Positions 15,978 through 26,753 of a stretch of DNA of 64,000 nt are shown here, piece by piece. The position numbers and the translations under genes were made by a program. Source of the stretch: Bacteriovoracaceae bacterium (GTDB taxonomy: Bacteria > Bdellovibrionota > Bacteriovoracia > Bacteriovoracales > Bacteriovoracaceae); assembly GCA_048270185.1 (NCBI GenBank), contig JBLWTJ010000001.1:224001-288000 (forward strand), given 5' to 3'. A model generated the notes under the pieces. It was not told where the DNA came from. It searched no databases and saw only the letters and a program-made list of their open reading frames with translations. Position 1 is the first letter of the stretch; each line of letters starts with the position of its first letter.

Positions 15978-16910
15978 ATGAAGTTGATTGGTAGAGGCCT
16001 TACGGCCCTTTTCTTATGTGTCTTCTTAGCACATTCAGTAAGCGCCAGTGTTTTCTCTTTTGGAGAATTGTTATTAAGGCCAGTATTGATTAAGTCAAAG
16101 GTTATTAAAGAGGGGATCTCAGGGGCTTCAATTACAAGCTTAAAGAATTCAATTGAATATAGTGTTCGAACAATTGCGCAAGATCATTCTTCATTAAAAG
16201 AAGGTCTAGAAACAATTCTTTCAAAAGCTTCGAGAGAAGATAAAGACAAAGTTCAAAGAATCATTTCATCACTAGATGCACCAACAGATTCGATAAGCGG
16301 TGAGCGTTTTAAGGCCATCGCAAATGATCTTGCTTATCTTGCAAGTGCATATGGGACACATGCAGATGATATTTTAAGCTGTTCGATCTGTAAGACAGAT
16401 CAACTTGCTTCTCTTGGATATAAGTCAAAGATTGTTAAAGTATCTGATCCTAGTTTAAAGAGAATGATGGTTAGACTTCCAAAGGACCAAGATGCACTTA
16501 ATCGTTATATTGGTCAAAAGTCTAGATCTCTAAAAGTAAAAGATGTTACACGCTACCTTGATAAAGCAGACCGTAAAACACTTGCCTTATTTCTAAGTTT
16601 CAACAATAGAGGAGCGAAGAAAGAGTACGCTGAATTTTATCAAGCAGTAGCTAAGTATAGTTCTGATTCAAATGGTAGGGCGCTATTTGCAGGCCCTGGT
16701 TCTTCGAATCATTTATGGAAAGTTATCGATGGAAAGTTCTCTCCTGAAAAAGCTCAGAAATTAGCAACAGCTATTAATGAAGCTTCACGTGTTCCAGCAT
16801 CAAAGAGAGAAGATGCATTCTTTGATCAGCTTTATAAAGTGAGTGACAAAACTCCTGAGACTAAAGCTAAGATTGAAGAATTAAAAAAGAAGAAATGTCT
16901 GTTTAAATAA
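15978..16910 (+). CDS. Exported hypothetical protein
   Basis: GAGGAG SD, signal peptide (..SVSA), CSIC motif and a terminal Cys. Confidence 0.75.
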   Translation: MKLIGRGLTALFLCVFLAHSVSASVFSFGELLLRPVLIKSKVIKEGISGASITSLKNSIEYSVRTIAQDHSSLKEGLETILSKASREDKDKVQRIISSLDAPTDSISGERFKAIANDLAYLASAYGTHADDILSCSICKTDQLASLGYKSKIVKVSDPSLKRMMVRLPKDQDALNRYIGQKSRSLKVKDVTRYLDKADRKTLALFLSFNNRGAKKEYAEFYQAVAKYSSDSNGRALFAGPGSSNHLWKVIDGKFSPEKAQKLATAINEASRVPASKREDAFFDQLYKVSDKTPETKAKIEELKKKKCLFK

Positions 16911-16965: not shown

Positions 16966-19900
16966 ATGGAAAACAAAAATAAAAGATTTAAAGATTATTA
17001 CTTGCCAGTTCTTGGTACTGTAGCAATCGGGACTGCTGCGGTTTTTGGAATCTCGCATCTTAAGAGTTATGACTTTCGTAACCCTTCATCGAATGGCGAT
17101 GGAGATTATAAAACTGCATATGAAGCTTGGGCCGACCTTCAATACTCTGGTTCTAGTTATAATGCAAAAGCGATCCTAGTGGGTGGAGAAGCATTACCTG
17201 GAATGACTGGTGGTCTTACATTCGGTGCAGAAAAAGAAGCATCATCAAGTCTTATCACACGTGTTATGTCTCCTTCTAATCAACTTATTAAAAAGAAGAT
17301 TGCAGCATTGTCACAAGAAGATCAAGAAAAGTTTTATCGAGATTTTCTTGAAAATTATGCAAAGGATGCCAATGGATATCGTACGTATCGTAATAAAGAA
17401 GGTTTAAAAGTTGATCTTGCACGCGATGTTGTTGATATTGACGGCAATCCAAAAGTTATCAATCTAGAAGAGCTTAAAGCGACAAATATTGCTGAGGCTG
17501 ACTACGATAAATTAAAGTTAGTATTTGAAAACCTAATTGATCAAATGGAAGACAGGGCAATGACTTTCATAAAGCCTCGTGTTCGTATGAAGTTCTTCGA
17601 TGGTTCACTACCTGGTTTAACTAAGAAATTCTTAGCATATCGATATGACTACAGTGATTGGAAGCCTAACTTTGGTAAGGCCGAAAGATTCCTCGTGGAC
17701 GCCCATGGACACAATGGTGGTGGCGGAGGTTGGGAAATCAACTTTAAGGCACAAAATACATATGGAGAGTTTGAGGAGCTTGTTGCATGGTTTAGAGATG
17801 AATTATCACAAGTCATTAAAGATCCTAAAACTCTTGAAAATAAAGTTAAGCTCTTTCAGGCTCCTGGGCACCAGCGAATGGTATTTGTTAAGCATCCTGA
17901 GCTTGATGAAAGTAAACTCTCAGAGTTCTATCGTACGATTCAATCATATATTGTTCTAAATGGTATTAATGGTGACTCAGGAATTGAGTTTGCGAATTAT
18001 AAGCAAGTACAACCTGAATCGGCGTTGAAAGATCTATATAGTGGGGGACGAGGGGTAATCAGGCCAGATGGAAAGTTTAAGCCTTGGATTGCCAACACAG
18101 GTGGACTTGGAATCGAGTTTAGAGCAGGGACAAAGAACTTAGCTCCTGCTAGATATTATCAAACAACTCTTGGTGCACGCATCGCTGCTAATGACTTTAG
18201 CGGAATTGCTAGTATCGACGATTATAATCTAAATAGTGCTAGCTTTCAGTCGAAGGAAAGTATTGTTGCTCGATTCGGCATTGAAGATGAAGTGGCCGAC
18301 AAGGCACTCAAGGTTCTTGATAAGGCCGGCATTAAACCTGGCTACCGTGTACAGTACTGGGGATGGACCGAAGAAGGTGTTGCTTTTATTGGTGATACAA
18401 AGAGAAAGCTTGTAAAAGATCTAGTAAGGCAATTTACTGAACAAGTTGCGGCCCTTGATATTGAACAGGACCAAGCAGTGCTTAAGCAACAAGTTCGTAA
18501 GATGAATAAGTCTTGGGTTTCAGCATCAAAGCTAATTGATGATCTTGAAAATTATATGAGACCTAAAATGGTTGATTATGATGCATTAACGATGGACTTC
18601 AAGGCCAATGTGGATGCTCCACATCGAATTAATAATCCAGTCGATGTTAATAAGATCGACCTAGGGATTGAGTATTCTGGTAAGTTCCCACTGAGACTTA
18701 AGTCCATAACATCACAAGAGCGAATGGAAGATGGGAAACGTGCATGGGTACAAACTACGGTTGACCTCTCAAGTGAGGATCGTGAAGCGATTATTAAAAA
18801 AGTAGCTCAAGATCTCTTTGAAGAAATTGGTGGCGAAAATGGCGAGGCTCCAGTTAAGCTCGATGTTGACGGCCACGGGCACGGACTTGATGTTGCCTAT
18901 TCTATTCGTGATGATAAGGGCCGTAAGTGGCAAGTCGAGTGGGATGGTATTGGCCGCTCTTATTCGCCGTCTGGTGAAATCATTGGTGAGTCTCCACGTG
19001 GTGGGACAATTGAGCTTATTACGCCTAAGTTTACGCCAACAATTGATGAAGTAGCTTCAGTTTATAAGGCTTTTGAAAAAAATAATGTTCTACCATCGCT
19101 AATGGCCGGTGGTGGTCACGTTAATATTGACCTTGCGGCCTTTGATGGAAAGCCAAAACAACTTGCTCGCTTCTTATCAATCTTTCATGAGCACCGTGGG
19201 ATCATTTCTCTCATGTTCCAACATATTAATCGTTCTCACACGTCTGAGCCTGTTGAAGTAAGTGATACTTTAAGAAATGCACTTAAGAACTTTAACGGAA
19301 GCGAAGAAGAGCTTAAAAAACTTCTCTACAATGAAAGGTATTTTAATACTCGTTTTGGACGTAAGACTCGTTATATTCAATTAGATGTTTCTGCTTATTT
19401 TCAAGATGTTATCCCTGAGCAATTTGTAACAGATGACTTTGATATTTCTAACCCAACAGTTGACTGGCGCCGTACTTTCCGAGTTGATCCAAAGATTAGA
19501 AAGGCCGAGTTTAGAATGTTTAATGCTCCAAGAGATGCCGCAGAGTCTGCTCTACAGATTAAACTAGTACGTGCAATGCTTGATAAAGCACTCAATAGCA
19601 CTGAAGAATTAAGTGGTAAGGTTGATTACACAAGTCATGTTGACTATGTTAAGAAACCTGCTTCTGTTGAAGCTGATCTCAAGAAACTTTGTGATGACTT
19701 AGGCCTTGATATTAATCAATATCGTACATCAGCAATGGAAGGACTATCTATTTCAGAACTTGAAAGTAAGAAGTTATTCTTTAGAAGTCTTGATGAAAAA
19801 ATGGCAATTCACCCACACCAGCCAGGTTGGGGGAATGCAGTTAATGCAAGAAGCAGCGAAGATGCTCTTAATTCAACTGGACGCCAATGGGTTCATGGTG

Positions 19901-20055
19901 CAGCTGATGAAACAAATACAATGGATAATGCTCACCGTGTTCGTGCGGCCCTTGCTGCACAAGAGATGCGTGAAAATACAATTCCTGCGCGAGAAATGCC
20001 GGGAGAATTTATTAGAACAAATAGTTGCCAGGAATTAATTAACGAAATTCTATAA
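16966..20055 (+). CDS. Membrane-anchored protein with two tandem COOH-NH2 ligase (Amidoligase_2-like) domains
   Basis: C-half LGIEY, WQVEWDG, IELITP, GGGHVNID, RYIQLD, AEFRMFN; N-half TFGAE, WEINF, PGHQRM, GIEFR; N-terminal TM. Confidence 0.7.
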   Translation: MENKNKRFKDYYLPVLGTVAIGTAAVFGISHLKSYDFRNPSSNGDGDYKTAYEAWADLQYSGSSYNAKAILVGGEALPGMTGGLTFGAEKEASSSLITRVMSPSNQLIKKKIAALSQEDQEKFYRDFLENYAKDANGYRTYRNKEGLKVDLARDVVDIDGNPKVINLEELKATNIAEADYDKLKLVFENLIDQMEDRAMTFIKPRVRMKFFDGSLPGLTKKFLAYRYDYSDWKPNFGKAERFLVDAHGHNGGGGGWEINFKAQNTYGEFEELVAWFRDELSQVIKDPKTLENKVKLFQAPGHQRMVFVKHPELDESKLSEFYRTIQSYIVLNGINGDSGIEFANYKQVQPESALKDLYSGGRGVIRPDGKFKPWIANTGGLGIEFRAGTKNLAPARYYQTTLGARIAANDFSGIASIDDYNLNSASFQSKESIVARFGIEDEVADKALKVLDKAGIKPGYRVQYWGWTEEGVAFIGDTKRKLVKDLVRQFTEQVAALDIEQDQAVLKQQVRKMNKSWVSASKLIDDLENYMRPKMVDYDALTMDFKANVDAPHRINNPVDVNKIDLGIEYSGKFPLRLKSITSQERMEDGKRAWVQTTVDLSSEDREAIIKKVAQDLFEEIGGENGEAPVKLDVDGHGHGLDVAYSIRDDKGRKWQVEWDGIGRSYSPSGEIIGESPRGGTIELITPKFTPTIDEVASVYKAFEKNNVLPSLMAGGGHVNIDLAAFDGKPKQLARFLSIFHEHRGIISLMFQHINRSHTSEPVEVSDTLRNALKNFNGSEEELKKLLYNERYFNTRFGRKTRYIQLDVSAYFQDVIPEQFVTDDFDISNPTVDWRRTFRVDPKIRKAEFRMFNAPRDAAESALQIKLVRAMLDKALNSTEELSGKVDYTSHVDYVKKPASVEADLKKLCDDLGLDINQYRTSAMEGLSISELESKKLFFRSLDEKMAIHPHQPGWGNAVNARSSEDALNSTGRQWVHGAADETNTMDNAHRVRAALAAQEMRENTIPAREMPGEFIRTNSCQELINEIL

Positions 20056-20545: not shown

Positions 20546-22138
20546 TTATTTGAAATCATTTGTCTTAAAGAATTCCACATCAGCATATTTTTCCGTGGCC
20601 AATTTTAGATCCCATTCTGTACGGTAAATAAAGCAAGGTCGATCTTTAATATCAAAGGCAATATTTGAACTATAACGCGAAATAAACTCGTCTTTGATCT
20701 TCTCATTTGGAAATTTAATCCATCGAATCCCGTTATAAGGAAAGCCCTCATAATCTCCTTTAACATTATATTCGTCTTCGAGACGACGCTGAACAACTTC
20801 AAACTGTAGTGCACCAACAGCACCTAAGATTTTCTCAGTCGAATTATGTCGTCTAAAAAGCTGAACGGAGCCTTCTTCTGAAAGTTGTTGTAACCCCTTA
20901 TCAAGTTGTTTTCCTTTCATCGGATCTTTTAAAAGAACACGTTTGAATAATTCTGGAGCAAAACTTGGTATTCCTGTAAATTGCATGATTTCACCATCTG
21001 TGAAGGTATCACCAATTTGTAACTTCCCTGAGTCGTGAATACCAATGATATCACCTGGAATTGCATACTCTGTTATTTCTCGATCTTGTGCTTGAAAGAT
21101 TAAAGGAGTGGCAATTTTTAATTCCTTTCCCGTTCTCGCTAGAGTTACTTTTTGTCCTCTTTCAAATCTTCCAGAACAAACGCGGATAAAGGCGACGCGG
21201 TCTCTGTGTTTCTTATCCATATTGGCCTGAATCTTAAAAACAAAACCACTGAACTTCTTTTCACTTGGATCGACCATGCGTGTCTCACCACTTTCAATTG
21301 GGGCCGTAATAACCTCACGCTTACCAGGGCCAGGAGCGTATTTTGAGAATGTATCAATTACTTCTTTTACACCAAAGTTATTAAGTGCAGAGCCAAAATA
21401 CATTGGCGTCATTATCCCAGCTAAGAATTCTTCTTCGTTAAATTCTGGCATAAGTTCTTCAATCATTAAGAGATCTTCTTCTAGTTTTTCTAGCAGGCTA
21501 GCTCCAACAAAATCTTTTACATGTGAAGCTGTTAAATCACTTGCATCAATGATTGTTGGACTAAATGGATCTTGAGCATCTTTAAAGCTCATAATTGTCT
21601 TATTTCTGAGGTCGTAAACACCTTTGAAGTCGACACCCGAGCCGATTGGCCAAGTCATAGGCACACATTGAATTGAACATGTCTTTTCAACGTCATCAAT
21701 TAGTTCAAATGGATCAAGAGCATCGCGATCAAATTTATTACAGAAGGAAACAATTGGCGTATCTCGCATACGACATACTTCCATAAGCTTCTTAGTCTGT
21801 GTTTCAACACCTTTTGCAGAGTCAATCATCATAAGAACACTTTCAACCGCTGTCAGTGTTCGGTAGGTATCTTCTGAGAAATCCTTGTGACCTGGTGTAT
21901 CTAAAAGGTGCATCGCTCGATTATTATATGGAAATGACATAACAGAAGAAGTAATCGAGATACCACGCTCTTTCTCCATCTCCATCCAGTCAGACTTAGC
22001 GTAGTTTCCTTGCTTACTTTTAACCATACCGACACTTCGCACAACTTGACCAAACCAAAGTAGTTTCTCCGTCATTGTTGTCTTACCAGCATCCGGGTGA
22101 GAGATAATTGCAAATGTTGCACGCTTTAAGTCTTCCAT
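20546..22138 (-). CDS. prfC: Peptide chain release factor 3
   Basis: FAIISHPDAGKTT, DTPGHKDFSEDTYR, FKIQANMD..HRDR. Confidence 0.98.
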   Translation of the reverse strand: MEDLKRATFAIISHPDAGKTTMTEKLLWFGQVVRSVGMVKSKQGNYAKSDWMEMEKERGISITSSVMSFPYNNRAMHLLDTPGHKDFSEDTYRTLTAVESVLMMIDSAKGVETQTKKLMEVCRMRDTPIVSFCNKFDRDALDPFELIDDVEKTCSIQCVPMTWPIGSGVDFKGVYDLRNKTIMSFKDAQDPFSPTIIDASDLTASHVKDFVGASLLEKLEEDLLMIEELMPEFNEEEFLAGIMTPMYFGSALNNFGVKEVIDTFSKYAPGPGKREVITAPIESGETRMVDPSEKKFSGFVFKIQANMDKKHRDRVAFIRVCSGRFERGQKVTLARTGKELKIATPLIFQAQDREITEYAIPGDIIGIHDSGKLQIGDTFTDGEIMQFTGIPSFAPELFKRVLLKDPMKGKQLDKGLQQLSEEGSVQLFRRHNSTEKILGAVGALQFEVVQRRLEDEYNVKGDYEGFPYNGIRWIKFPNEKIKDEFISRYSSNIAFDIKDRPCFIYRTEWDLKLATEKYADVEFFKTNDFK

Positions 22139-22357: not shown

Positions 22358-23422
22358 CAGTGTCATACCCCTGAATATTCACAACCTTCTCATACACAAC
22401 ATAAGGCGAATGCTAATTTTAACTGTATGGATTGTCATATGCTTAAGAAAGCCTACATGGGAATCGATATGAGGGCCGACCATAAATTCGTTATTCCACG
22501 CCCTGATTATACTCTTAAGTATGGTGGTCCAAATAGTTGTACAAATTGTCATGGTGATAAGTCTAAGGTTGAAATGGATAAGCTCTTTAGAACTAAGTTT
22601 AATAATCTAAAAACGAAAGACTCTCTACTTGAAATTATTGGAGAAATTCAAAAAGGAAATTTTAAGAATAAAAATGAACTTCTAGGATTTATTAAAGATT
22701 CAAATAATGCGCAAATGAGAAGGGCCTATGCCATAAGTTTTCTACGTGAATTTCATAGTATGAAGGCCCAGGATTATAACTCGTTATTAAGCGATTCGTC
22801 TGTGCTTGTGGTTCAAGCGACTCTGGAGCTCTTAGCAAATTTTCCTGATATCAAACAACTCCAAGACAGTGTTTTAAAACTTACAAGTCATAAGTATAAA
22901 ACAATCTCATATAGTACTGATAGTATGCTAAAGCTCGCTTCTCTTTCTCGCTTCGGATATGTTGCAAAATCTCCCGCTAAATTTTACGAGGATTCAGTTA
23001 AACGCTTCCCATACTTTCTTCCAGCGTATGTGAATCTGGCCGATTTGCATCGTCAAGTTGGTAATGAGGCACAGTCTCTTCAAATATTAAAGGATGCTTT
23101 TTCTAAGAATCCACAAGATGCAAGCTTACTTGTGGCACTTGGAATGTATCATATAAGAATTAGAGATTATCATATGGCCATTGATCTCTTTGATTCGGCC
23201 AGCAAGTACGAGCCTGAAAATCCATACTTTCGCTATCTCTATATACTGACTTACAAAGAACTGTATGGTGCTAAGAAAGCATTTTCTCAAGCAAAGTTAT
23301 ATGAATCCAAATACGAGGGGAGTTTCCTCTTTAATCAATTACTATTCGCTCTTAGCGTTGAGCTACAAGATGTCGAAAATGTTAAATTTTATTCTTCAAA
23401 AATAAATAAATTTAGGCAGTAA
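22358..23422 (+). pseudogene. 5'-truncated multiheme cytochrome c / HEAT / TPR protein
   Basis: Frame extends upstream of the ATG as QCH...SHTQH...CMDCHM..YMGIDMRADH..PRPD..PNSCTNCH; first CxxCH is cut, no signal peptide, in-frame TAG at 22334. Confidence 0.75.
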
Positions 23423-23474
23423 TGGCATCTGTTAAATTTGCCTATGTAAATATTACAAAGGGCGTAGACGTAGG

Positions 23475-23503
23475 TTGTAAGTTCAAAATTAGCGTCGTAT
23501 AAA
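23475..23503 (+). promoter_or_regulatory. sigma70 promoter of candidate sRNA
   Basis: TTGTAA-N17-TATAAA. Confidence 0.6.
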
Positions 23504-23509
23504 ACGGGC

Positions 23510-23690
23510 ATAACTGTAGCAGGGATTGATGAATAAACATATTGTTAAAGTTGTGTTGTTGTTCTTTGTTCCCCAAATTCGTGTTAATTTTCGTGTTGTT
23601 GTTATTCTCGAATTATTCGTATGTTTTTCAATCTCTGCTACTTTCTATATATAAAAAACGCCAGTTTCATACTGGCGTTTTCTTTTTTTT
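23510..23690 (+). ncRNA. Candidate small RNA with long closing stem and GU-rich loop
   Basis: Own promoter and terminator; 14-bp stem 23516-23529/23628-23641 plus 7-bp stem 23535-23541/23620-23626; GTGTTGTTGTT twice in the loop. Confidence 0.6.
23653..23690. terminator. Bidirectional intrinsic terminator (candidate sRNA / gcvP)
   Basis: AAAAAACGCCAGT-TTCAT-ACTGGCGTTTTCTTTTTTTT. Confidence 0.9.
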
Positions 23691-23717: not shown

Positions 23718-26700
23718 TTATTTCGCTTGATGCTTTTCTCTAATCATTGCAATTACGTCATGAACATTTGTATGACGAAGTTTCTTTGGTGAGATTTCAT
23801 CTGTTGGAAGTTCCCATAACTTATTAAGTTCTGTGTAGAATTTTAGATTCTTATTGGCCCAAACTTCATCAACTTTTCCTACCGCAGTAAAATGAGGAGC
23901 TGTTTGTAATACTTCAGGTGAGTCTGATAGAACATTCTTAATTGCCACTAAAACTTCTGCAAAATCATCTAATTCTTTCTTTGTGAAAGATTCAGTTGGT
24001 TCAATCATTAGTCCGAATACTTCAGGGAAAGCAACAGTTGGGGCATGAAGACCAAAGTCTAAGAATAGTTTTCCTACTTTTGCTATAATCTGATTCTTAA
24101 GAGTTCCTGACTTTTCAATGTGTGAGAACATGTCATCACTAAGAGTAATGATGAACTCGTGCATTCTTGGTGTTTTATCTGCACCATGAGGTAGCATTGG
24201 ATATACATCTTTAAGTTTATTAAAGAGGTAGCGTGCACTAAGGACTGCTATTTCACTCATCGTTACAACACCATCTTGTCCTAAGGCCTTTAGGTAAGTA
24301 TAGGCGCGAACTTTGTGAGCTACGTTCCCATCATGGCGATGAAAATCTCCAATGCACTTAGATGCACGAACTTTTTTGAAGCTTCCATCAGCTAGTTTTT
24401 CTATTTGTGTACCAGGAATATAGTCGATAAGTTTATTACTTACTGCTACGATTGCATCACCTGGGCCTCCTCCACCGTGCGGAATTGTCCAAGTTTTGTG
24501 AAGGTTATTATGGCAAGCATCGACGCCAAGCTTTTCAAGTGAGACGATTCCCGCAATCGCATTCATATTAGCGCCGTCCATATAAACGAGTCCGTCAACA
24601 GAGTGAATTAGATCAGCAACTTCTTTGAAGTTTTCTTCAAAAACACCAGCTGTATTTGGATTGGTTACCATGATACCAGCGATTCTTTCACCATCAGTTT
24701 TAATGATCTCTTTTAGTTGTTCAAGATCGATTTGACCTCTTTCATCTGCATCTAGTGTAATGATTCCTACTTGTTTACCATCGACACGGCCTGGAACAAA
24801 TCCAGCAACAGCTGCTGTCGCAGGGTTGGTACCATGTGCTGAACGAGGAATTAGAATAGTATTTTTAACTTCTCCATTGCCTTTGTCTGCATGGTAGGCT
24901 TGAAACATCTTTATTCCGACAAGCTCTCCTTGGGCACCTGCAACTGCTTGAGTAACAACACCAGGTAGACCTGTGATGGCCTTGAAATCTTCTTGTATTT
25001 CATGAAGTAACTCAAGTGTACCTTGAGTGAATTTATCATCTAGGTCTGGGTGTGCCATTGTAAAGCCACTAAGACCTGCGGCCCAGTCGTTAACATATGG
25101 ATTATATTTCATTGTACATGAGCCAAGAGGGTAGATTGCATCATCTGGTGATACGTTTAAGCTTCCACATTTATCATAGAATGCTTTCACTTCTTCGAGA
25201 GGAAATTGTGCAATACCCGGAGCTTCTAATCGAAGATTATTAACAGGGATTTCAGGTAGGAAGATTTCTGCTTCTTCATTTTCGCTAAAATTCTTATTAA
25301 AGACTTCAATTAGTGCAGTAAGTTCTTCTTGTGATTGTATATCACCGAAAGATACTTTAAGAAGATTTCCTGCAAGTCCATGACGGCCAGAAATATTCTT
25401 TCCAATAACAATCTCACTACTTTTATTAATTAGTGAATCAAGATCACCTTCAATCTTTAATACAACTTCATTGTAGAATGGTGCTGCAAAAGCAAGCTCA
25501 ACACCATTTAGTCCTAGAACTTGAGAAGTGAAGTTAATTGCATTCTGCCTTGAAGTTTCAAGTTTTGCCGCAAGACCTTCGTCTCCAAGAGCTAGAAGTG
25601 AGGCACCTGCAATCGTTGCTACAAACGATTGATTTGAACAAATATTACTTGTCGCTTTCTCTCGGCGAATATGTTGCTCACGAGTTGAAAGAACCATGGC
25701 AAGACATTCATTATTATTCATGTCAACAGCGTTACCTACGTAGCGGCCTGCTGTTTGGCGAATTTCATTCTTATTCTTTTCATTAAAACGGATTCCAAAG
25801 ATTCCAAGCCCTGGGCCACCATAATTTGCATCGAGACAAAGGTGTTGTCCTTCACCAACGATCATTGTTGTCCCTTGTTTGTTTGTACCATAAACACTTG
25901 GCTTCTTCAGTCCACCTTTTGCAAGTAGCATCGGATCGATGATAGCAATAGAATAGACGTCGTGTTCTGTACACAGGTCTGTAAGTGCATCAACATCTTC
26001 TAGTAATCCTAGAGAGTTTACTTGGCCAAAGGCAAAGCAAGCAATGTCATTAGTTGATGTAATGATTTCGCGAGCTTTATCGATATCAATTAAACCGCTT
26101 TCTTTATTAATTGGAGCATAAATAATCTCAAGTCCTGTGTGGGCAGCATTTGTTTCTAATACACTTCTGTCTTGAGGATAAATGGCCTCACTAACTAAGA
26201 CTTTATTTTTCTTTTTAGCTAATCTAAGACCTGTCTTTAATGCTTCATATAGACAAGTTGATCTCTCATATAGAGACGAGTTGATAGCTTCAAAACCTGT
26301 TAGGGCAGTAAGGGCACTAGAGTAAATCCAAAGTGTGTTTAATGTACCTTGGCTTCTTTCTGGTTGGTATGGTGTATAGGCCGTTGTCAGTCCCCTAATA
26401 TTACAAACATAAGGAACAATGTCGTGAATTTTAAATTGTGGCAGCCCATCTCCCAAGAAATTTGTAGGGATGTTATTCTTCTTTGCAAGTTCATCAAGAC
26501 GCTCAACTAGTTGATCGTAAGATAGTCCAGCAGCTAGAGGAATCTTTTCACTGAACTTCACATCGTCTTTTATATGGTTGAATAATTCTTTGGTATTACT
26601 TAAGCCTAGGGTTGCTAGCATTTCTTTTATATCTTCGTCACTGGCGCTGATATAATTCTTTGCTAATTCGCGATTAATTTCGCCCTTTAAACTTCTTGGA

Positions 26701-26753
26701 TCAAAACCAAGAGTAGAAATTGTTTTTTCAGAAATCTCTTGTGAGTGTGACAT
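23718..26753 (-). CDS. gcvP: Glycine dehydrogenase (decarboxylating), single-chain fusion of GcvPA- and GcvPB-type subunits
   Basis: TAYTPYQPE, TREQHIRREKATSNIC, PLGSCTMKYNP, NLHKTW..PHGGGGPG, MIEPTES. Confidence 0.95.
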   Translation of the reverse strand: MSHSQEISEKTISTLGFDPRSLKGEINRELAKNYISASDEDIKEMLATLGLSNTKELFNHIKDDVKFSEKIPLAAGLSYDQLVERLDELAKKNNIPTNFLGDGLPQFKIHDIVPYVCNIRGLTTAYTPYQPERSQGTLNTLWIYSSALTALTGFEAINSSLYERSTCLYEALKTGLRLAKKKNKVLVSEAIYPQDRSVLETNAAHTGLEIIYAPINKESGLIDIDKAREIITSTNDIACFAFGQVNSLGLLEDVDALTDLCTEHDVYSIAIIDPMLLAKGGLKKPSVYGTNKQGTTMIVGEGQHLCLDANYGGPGLGIFGIRFNEKNKNEIRQTAGRYVGNAVDMNNNECLAMVLSTREQHIRREKATSNICSNQSFVATIAGASLLALGDEGLAAKLETSRQNAINFTSQVLGLNGVELAFAAPFYNEVVLKIEGDLDSLINKSSEIVIGKNISGRHGLAGNLLKVSFGDIQSQEELTALIEVFNKNFSENEEAEIFLPEIPVNNLRLEAPGIAQFPLEEVKAFYDKCGSLNVSPDDAIYPLGSCTMKYNPYVNDWAAGLSGFTMAHPDLDDKFTQGTLELLHEIQEDFKAITGLPGVVTQAVAGAQGELVGIKMFQAYHADKGNGEVKNTILIPRSAHGTNPATAAVAGFVPGRVDGKQVGIITLDADERGQIDLEQLKEIIKTDGERIAGIMVTNPNTAGVFEENFKEVADLIHSVDGLVYMDGANMNAIAGIVSLEKLGVDACHNNLHKTWTIPHGGGGPGDAIVAVSNKLIDYIPGTQIEKLADGSFKKVRASKCIGDFHRHDGNVAHKVRAYTYLKALGQDGVVTMSEIAVLSARYLFNKLKDVYPMLPHGADKTPRMHEFIITLSDDMFSHIEKSGTLKNQIIAKVGKLFLDFGLHAPTVAFPEVFGLMIEPTESFTKKELDDFAEVLVAIKNVLSDSPEVLQTAPHFTAVGKVDEVWANKNLKFYTELNKLWELPTDEISPKKLRHTNVHDVIAMIREKHQAK

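Follow-up and report, generated by a model that had tools for sequence, protein, structure and literature searches.

The 64,000-nucleotide stretch of DNA analysed here, the window, very probably carries on its plus strand a real gene for a structured small RNA, with a predicted length of ∼125-180 nt. The gene lies between prfC and gcvP, recurs at the same position in 15 genomes of two predatory genera, and combines a covarying closing helix with a conserved, largely unpaired loop rich in GU and C motifs. What could such an RNA do? We lean, by a modest degree, toward pairing in trans with CA-rich and Shine-Dalgarno segments of mRNA leaders, independently of Hfq. In the text below, G000 denotes the genome carrying the window copy, other labels of the G0xx type are single genomes, and g14 is the second genus.

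The junction that houses the RNA is formed by two genes of the minus strand. One is prfC, for release factor 3 (20546-22138; NCBIfam NF001964), which is the divergent neighbour in most homologues; the other is gcvP, a convergent gene with fused GcvPA and GcvPB parts (23718-26753; over the cut-offs of NCBIfam NF003346 and NF001696). All 15 carriers have the RNA homologue between prfC and gcvP, in the order prfC, divergent RNA, convergent gcvP. The gene following the RNA is gcvP in 13 of the 15, genes being inserted in this gap in G012 and G025. On the opposite side, prfC starts 14-172 nt from an operator-like box in 10 homologues, and the five with intervening genes comprise G000, G004 and G011, where genes have been inserted, and G001 and G007, with other neighbours. 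In the window the inserted gene encodes a TPR protein (22427-23422, plus strand), a clade-specific insertion that lies outside the RNA unit and adjoins the RNA in 3/15 homologues. Conversely, gcvP abuts prfC with no RNA between them in G097 and G101. Since insertions are tolerated on both sides and the two genes can meet without the RNA, the latter is probably an independent unit placed in an older gene junction, and its nearness to gcvP is no evidence of a role in glycine metabolism.

Some features of these genes are worth recording in their own right. The TPR frame of the window is shorter than a homologue bearing N-terminal paired CXXCH cytochrome domains and appears truncated at its 5' end. 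The gcvP product is a single-chain fusion that exceeds the GcvPA and GcvPB cut-offs while staying under the single-chain model TIGR00461, and its gene stands apart from folD-gcvT-gcvH (G000:C4:274537-276864). Its best relatives with titled records are from Bacteriovoracaceae/Bacteriovorax (54-57% identity), and close relatives (51-52% identity) are also held in records of Opitutales. Two further open reading frames of the window, 16966-20055 (1029 aa) and 15978-16910 (310 aa), have no NCBIfam match.

The RNA unit begins with a promoter, which the preliminary description had read correctly as TTGTAA-N17-TATAAA. The -35-like hexamer TTGTAA (23475-23480, plus strand) is matched by a TTG-type hexamer in 10/15 homologues and by a weaker one in five; the -10-like hexamer TATAAA (23498-23503, plus strand) reads TATAA(A/G/C) in 14 and TAGATA in one. 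A simple promoter scan, which requires a T at the sixth position of the -10, does not list this promoter among its predictions, so the call rests on conservation: the spacer letters vary among the homologues while the -10 stays, and both the -10 and its distance from the upstream box are kept in 14/15. From the spacing, transcription is predicted to start at ∼23509-23511. The promoter is sigma70-like, unlike the majority at attack phase in Bdellovibrio, where two thirds of the promoters are described as FliA-type, TTAAG-N16-CCGATA, in the portion of the study bearing on them (PMC3627812). The hexamer CCGATA is itself the top 6-mer of the leader regions in both G000 and G025.

Upstream of this promoter is a palindromic operator-like box, TGTAA-N3-TTACA (23445-23457, readable on either strand), that the preliminary description overlooked. 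It is present in 15/15 homologues, some with a degenerate right half-site, and lies 40 nt from the -10 in 14 of them and 37 nt in one. The exact box also precedes the gene for saccharopine dehydrogenase in 10 of 12 genus orthologues and is degenerate in the other two (the enzyme is identified by a PDB match with E 1.7e-79; the G000 box is at C1:937532-937544). It precedes carD in G004 and G025, with a degenerate version in G000 (C1:759822, upstream). At most of the saccharopine dehydrogenase and carD promoters the box is 28-30 nt from the -10, as counted on the printed sequences; the RNA promoter exceeds this spacing by roughly one helical turn, a difference that would fit an activator.

How specific is this box? 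Genome-wide its exact form is barely commoner than the reversed control (112 vs 90 sites in 13 genomes). It was not found at 14 paralogue loci of saccharopine dehydrogenase, a weak control because the paralogue sits inside an operon, and among the high-scoring sites of G000 none lies before gcvP or folD-gcvT-gcvH. The literature search on TGTAA-N3-TTACA did not name a regulator. The RNA, saccharopine dehydrogenase, carD and secreted-protein genes can be proposed as a candidate regulon. The box precedes many genes for secreted proteins in G006 and G025. A second paralogue resembling saccharopine dehydrogenase (G000:C1:1531647-1532708) follows a membrane-protein gene and is common to 13/13 genomes of the genus. 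In G023, from a genus without the RNA, a variant palindrome, GGTAA-N3-TTACC, stands ∼64 nt ahead of the gene for saccharopine dehydrogenase; it possibly serves the same regulator with an altered specificity.

The ends of the RNA are joined by a long helix, whose 5' arm (23516-23544, plus strand) pairs with a 3' arm at 23611-23641. Its outer part is the 14-bp stem proposed earlier, 23516-23529 with 23628-23641, and it is followed by an irregular inner stem. The additional 7-bp inner stem of the preliminary description can be read as 23530-23536/23613-23619, but folding programs favour other registers. The same helix recurs in the relatives with compensatory changes: 13/20 consensus pairs are changed on both sides and 94% of the cells are paired, a result reached by 0/500 shuffles, whereas slid registers pair only 42-48% of cells. 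The covariation set consists of 10 distinct sequences, five of which are near-identical kin, so that the independent covariation events are fewer than these figures suggest. Stem positions have a mean identity of 0.65 and loop positions one of 0.86. A stem that varies but stays paired, around a conserved and largely unpaired loop, is the pattern of a seed region.

Which strand is transcribed is not decided by folding energy, since both fold well (z -6.1 on the plus strand, with 0/200 shuffles, and z -7.9 on the minus strand). When the loop is constrained to stay open, 21-28 bp enclose 61-80 nt in 15/15 homologues, and in 15/15 this fold is stabler on the plus than on the minus strand; it has 0-5 G-U pairs on the plus vs 0-2 on the minus strand. 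Together, the promoter spacing fixed in 14/15, the stability of the constrained fold in 15/15 and the G-U bias favour the plus strand. As for the terminator (23655-23690), the hairpin at 23655-23681 has U-runs on both strands and, in the window, is likely shared with gcvP as had been suggested; the feature is not general, for 9/15 homologues have a terminator no more than 100 nt from the helix and 6/15 lack one.

The loop contains the elements that had first drawn attention to the locus. GTGTTGTTGTT occurs twice, starting at 23553 and 23593, TCGTGTT also twice, starting at 23579 and 23591, and GTTGTGTTGTTGT occupies 23550-23562, all as originally reported. Two exact copies of an 11-mer are only modestly unusual, as 44/2000 shuffles also have them, and the duplication is confined to the close clade, with 2 of 10 homologues tested having it. 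The part that is invariant was overlooked: a C-rich core with an anti-Shine-Dalgarno character, GUUCUUUGUUCCCC (23561-23574, plus strand), which contains GUUCCC. This core is exact in 12/13 genus genomes and one U shorter in G003, and GUUCCC is retained in the second genus, although its 15/15 count follows by construction of the search pattern. Before it stands the first GU-rich motif (23550-23563, plus strand), resembling the R1 region of GcvB and matching the Escherichia coli RNA exactly; after it come two copies of UUCGUG(UU) and a second GU-rich run (23578-23610, plus strand), a run that ends with UGAUUCCC in distant homologues. Each homologue has 2-5 copies of GUUGU and 1-3 of UUCCC. The mean unpaired probability of the core is 0.73-0.93 in the genus and 0.32-0.46 in the second genus; that of the GU-rich seed is 0.47-0.83. 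These seeds are of low complexity. Close to its 3' end, flhA contains 18 nt that match the core in the sense direction (G000:C2:417599-417616); this match is unique to G000 among the 13 genus genomes and is dismissed as chance.

The known distribution of the RNA is narrow. BLAST and a covariance model find one copy in each of the 13/13 genomes of the window's genus, and the 2/2 genomes of g14 have a homologue with the same motifs, box and position; these two copies emerged as weak hits in a filterless scan of 24 gcvP-flanking loci from other genera. A motif pattern run over 238 genomes of the class matched 21, namely the 13 of the genus, the two of g14 and six others; these six do not exceed what the reversed control yields (12 matches in 11 genomes), have no model R2 score at the motif and were rejected. 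A second model gave no further copies in 10 chosen genomes, and a phylum-wide model search of 150 genomes with strict filters returned true matches in the two genera only; as the covariance model is weak for remote copies, the RNA is to be described as not found, instead of absent, outside them. Genuine copies number 1/60 among metagenome loci, the single one belonging to the G012 type, and 0/1 among viral loci. Weak model hits in other genera (L057-L061, L318-L322, L509-L510) were inspected and dropped; L318 is the reverse complement of the CA-rich leader of a minus-strand gene.

Does the RNA belong to a family already described? Rfam offers none: nothing approaches a gathering score at the locus or at seven homologue loci. 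No paper on small RNAs of this predator family, and no prior description, was found in the open-access literature. For the predatory relative Bdellovibrio bacteriovorus, of the same phylum, the available account reports intergenic attack-phase sRNAs as having no significant homology outside that species, together with merRNA, which carries a c-di-GMP riboswitch (PMC3627812); these RNAs are set apart from ours by description only. 6S RNA (RF00013) is similar in size and has its ends paired in a long helix, but the present RNA has no apical stem and its consensus loop is unpaired, and the 6S gene of this genome is elsewhere (G000:C5:25016-25188, 61.5 bits).

The comparison with GcvB deserves more space. 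The match given in the preliminary description is real: a 13-mer is found at position 72 of E. coli GcvB (NC_000913.3), reached by 1/1000 shuffles, a figure to be read as post hoc. Exact matches of 13-14 nt to GcvB positions 72-89 occur in 8/8 genus sequences tested (0-12 of 1000 shuffles) and are not significant in 2/2 sequences of the second genus (61 and 157 of 1000 shuffles). Both RNAs have an unstructured GU-rich seed, identical to R1 over 13-14 nt within the genus, and R1 is described as pairing with and silencing CA-rich (ACA) enhancers near ribosome-binding sites (PMC3879156). The GcvB model RF00022 gives six matches at E<=10 in G000, none above the 42-bit cut-off, and the locus is not one of them. 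One of these, G000:C1:659166-659327 (28 bits, below cut-off), has a short GU run before a terminator and no closing helix, and was rejected; its GTGTTGTTGTT run, which stands just ahead of a strong terminator in a 3' region, may be accidental or may belong to a 3'-derived RNA. In contrast to GcvB, the ends of the RNA are joined by a long helix, a C-rich core is added and the carriers have no Hfq hit. The likeness is likely to be convergent.

Two other RNAs share the C-rich element. Unpaired GUUCCC is motif M2 of AbcR1/AbcR2 from Rhizobiales, as that motif is defined in PMC5461406, a likeness limited to a 6-mer; the window copy has no M1 (CUCCCA), its fold is different, there is no Rfam match, and AbcR2 is under the control of the LysR-type regulator VtlR. 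RsaE, of Staphylococcus and Bacillaceae, also has a conserved unpaired UCCC and variable helices with conserved structure; its expression is reported to be Hfq-independent, the UCCC to block ribosome binding, and its targets to include FolD and Fhs of the folate pathway (PMC2790875). There is no sequence or model match to RsaE, which is from another phylum, and the present RNA differs in its single closing helix with a large loop and in its added GU-rich seeds. The RNA would work partly like GcvB, AbcR and RsaE, yet it is a member of none.

As to RNA-binding proteins, Hfq (PF17209) is over the cut-off in 0/13 genus genomes, nine of which are at least 90% complete, and neither ProQ nor a glycine riboswitch was found in G000. 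The genome encodes a KhpA-type KH protein and a CsrA-like gene beside a FliW-like gene, the latter pair recognised by eye.

The leaders with which such a loop would pair are CA-rich, and in G000 leaders CA-rich words are most frequent between -30 and -20. When 16,384 7-mers are ranked by their enrichment in leaders (-45 to -12), the first 20 include four CA-rich words that are complementary to the GU motif in at least one homologue. The top-ranked 7-mer, ACACACA, is complementary to no homologue tested, so that another factor may read it. CA-rich 6-mers are weakly enriched in G025, and their enrichment is unmeasurable in G015. The density of CA-leader patterns is higher in carriers (median 4.5 vs 2.7 per Mb), a level also reached by 16/140 non-carriers; it is given little weight because it is confounded by kinship and composition. 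The genes examined for CA-rich leaders, 20 taken from a longer list with one disregarded because of an offset range, include thyA, dnaE, gyrB, smc, tdk, a ParB-domain gene, a bamA-like gene and several unannotated or secreted proteins. Strongly ACAC-rich leaders are common to G000 genes for replication and DNA precursors, namely thyA (C1:395040), dnaE (C3:308967), gyrB (C4:173154), smc (C1:1706735), tdk (C2:131051) and the ParB-domain gene (C1:70143).

Of these, thyA is the lead target, with weak support. Its leader has ACACGG, which can pair with UUCGUGU if one G-U is allowed, in 10/13 genus genomes (G000 is not among them) and in G025, vs 0/17 other genomes; this result is post hoc and the carriers are kin. 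The background is 9/3148 leaders in G000, and ACACAC occurs in the thyA leaders of 4/17 genomes without the RNA. gcvP may also be a target in the close clade, its leader having ACACGG in 3 of 10 genus genomes read; the leaders of folD, gcvT, gcvH and glyA are not CA-rich. Duplex predictions add nothing: ranking with the whole loop places no gene above controls (gcvP comes 267th of 3159), and ranking by segments at a 1% threshold (∼32 genes) is no better than shuffled seeds, for which the numbers were 38-105 with segment A, 12-32 with B and 16-32 with C. In a screen of orthologue pairs that covered 800 kb of each relative, 6/362 (controls 3-9) and 2/284 (controls 2-7) had both members among the top 10% of their genomes. 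Targets among amino-acid transporters were not found in these screens, which matched shuffled controls, and 19 CA-rich-leader genes scanned in frame gave one ABC ATPase of unknown substrate. The gene calls are from a simple caller, so some start codons are wrong.

From these data, the following course of events may be envisaged. A stand-alone gene would be transcribed from a sigma70-type promoter, under a regulator bound at TGTAA-N3-TTACA, into a plus-strand RNA whose 21-28-bp closing helix holds a mostly unpaired loop of 61-80 nt. The helix may protect the ends and present the seeds in place of Hfq; GUUGU and UUCGUG would bind leaders rich in ACA, and UUCCC would bind the Shine-Dalgarno sequence. 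By pairing at the CA-rich enhancer and the Shine-Dalgarno of several mRNAs, the loop would repress their translation without Hfq. A bolder version is speculative, and we hold it to be doubtful: a chaperone-free, independently evolved counterpart of GcvB/AbcR in predators, with a GcvB-type GU seed and an AbcR/RsaE-type anti-Shine-Dalgarno seed on a helix-closed loop, might be switched by a new operator that carD and saccharopine dehydrogenase also have, and might gate the translation of CA-enhancer mRNAs from replication and DNA-precursor genes (thyA, tdk, dnaE, gyrB, smc) across the switch between attack and growth.

Could the RNA bind a protein instead? CsrB and CrcZ are RNAs that titrate RNA-binding proteins, and the main rival, which we consider unlikely but worth keeping in mind, is that the repeated GUUGU, UUCGUG and UUCCC sites sequester such a protein. 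Repeated, sequence-invariant, unpaired motifs on a rigid scaffold would suit this role, as would the failure of the screens to detect a target set, and the KhpA-type and CsrA-like proteins are conceivable partners. CsrA recognises GGA hairpins, which the loop lacks, so that CsrA itself is an unlikely ligand; moreover, the motifs are complementary to elements for which G000 leaders are enriched, and their copy number and spacing differ between homologues. Improbable, in our view, is a sponge for another RNA, or a precursor from which an RNase III-type cut in the long helix releases a shorter active RNA; the chemistry would be that of the favoured reading, with a different substrate or mature form. 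The irregular helix is kept in 15/15 homologues and the terminator is missing in six, so that processing may define the mature 3' end. Against this, the search for a partner RNA bearing the complement of the core found none, the only second exact core site of G000 being the unconserved sense match in flhA.

We give little credence to a cis-acting element of a neighbour, be it a 3'-end or antisense element of gcvP, a leader of prfC or a CA-rich RNA of the minus strand. The prfC-gcvP synteny is common to all carriers, in five genomes lacking the terminator only a short distance separates the end of the helix from the gcvP stop, and the minus strand folds well and reads like CA-rich leaders; nevertheless, genes are inserted on either side, the box and -10 travel with the RNA, the G-U bias favours the plus strand, and gcvP and prfC can abut without it. 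Very improbable is a true orthologue of GcvB, glycine-induced and aimed at amino-acid transporters. The R1 identity, the position beside gcvP and an operator common to the RNA and a lysine-pathway gene point that way; the silence of RF00022 at the locus, the different architecture, the absence of Hfq hits and the loss of significance in the second genus point away from it. GcvB is activated by GcvA and glycine, and E. coli gcvB adjoins gcvA, not gcvP, while here the divergent neighbour is prfC. With unrelated genes inserted, and with the box recurring at saccharopine dehydrogenase and carD but, among its high-scoring sites in G000, at none of the gcv genes, the proposed link to glycine and gcvP is not supported; the self-contained, conserved, structured plus-strand RNA gene with an unpaired GU motif matching R1 is. 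A small protein gene, from a 41-codon frame in the 5' arm or a 62-codon TTG frame at 23542, is hardly credible, for although an ATG with a G-rich stretch upstream opens 41-63 codons in the close clade, the frame differs in G002, the start is missing in distant homologues and the indels are not in threes.

What does this locus offer? It provides a concrete RNA gene that is open to experiment, a new operator conserved at two further, putatively co-regulated genes, and a first candidate target. Should the RNA indeed pair with mRNA leaders, the strategy of setting a GU seed against a CA enhancer would have arisen in a lineage with no hit for Hfq or ProQ, and the RNA would give a handle on the post-transcriptional control of the predator life cycle.
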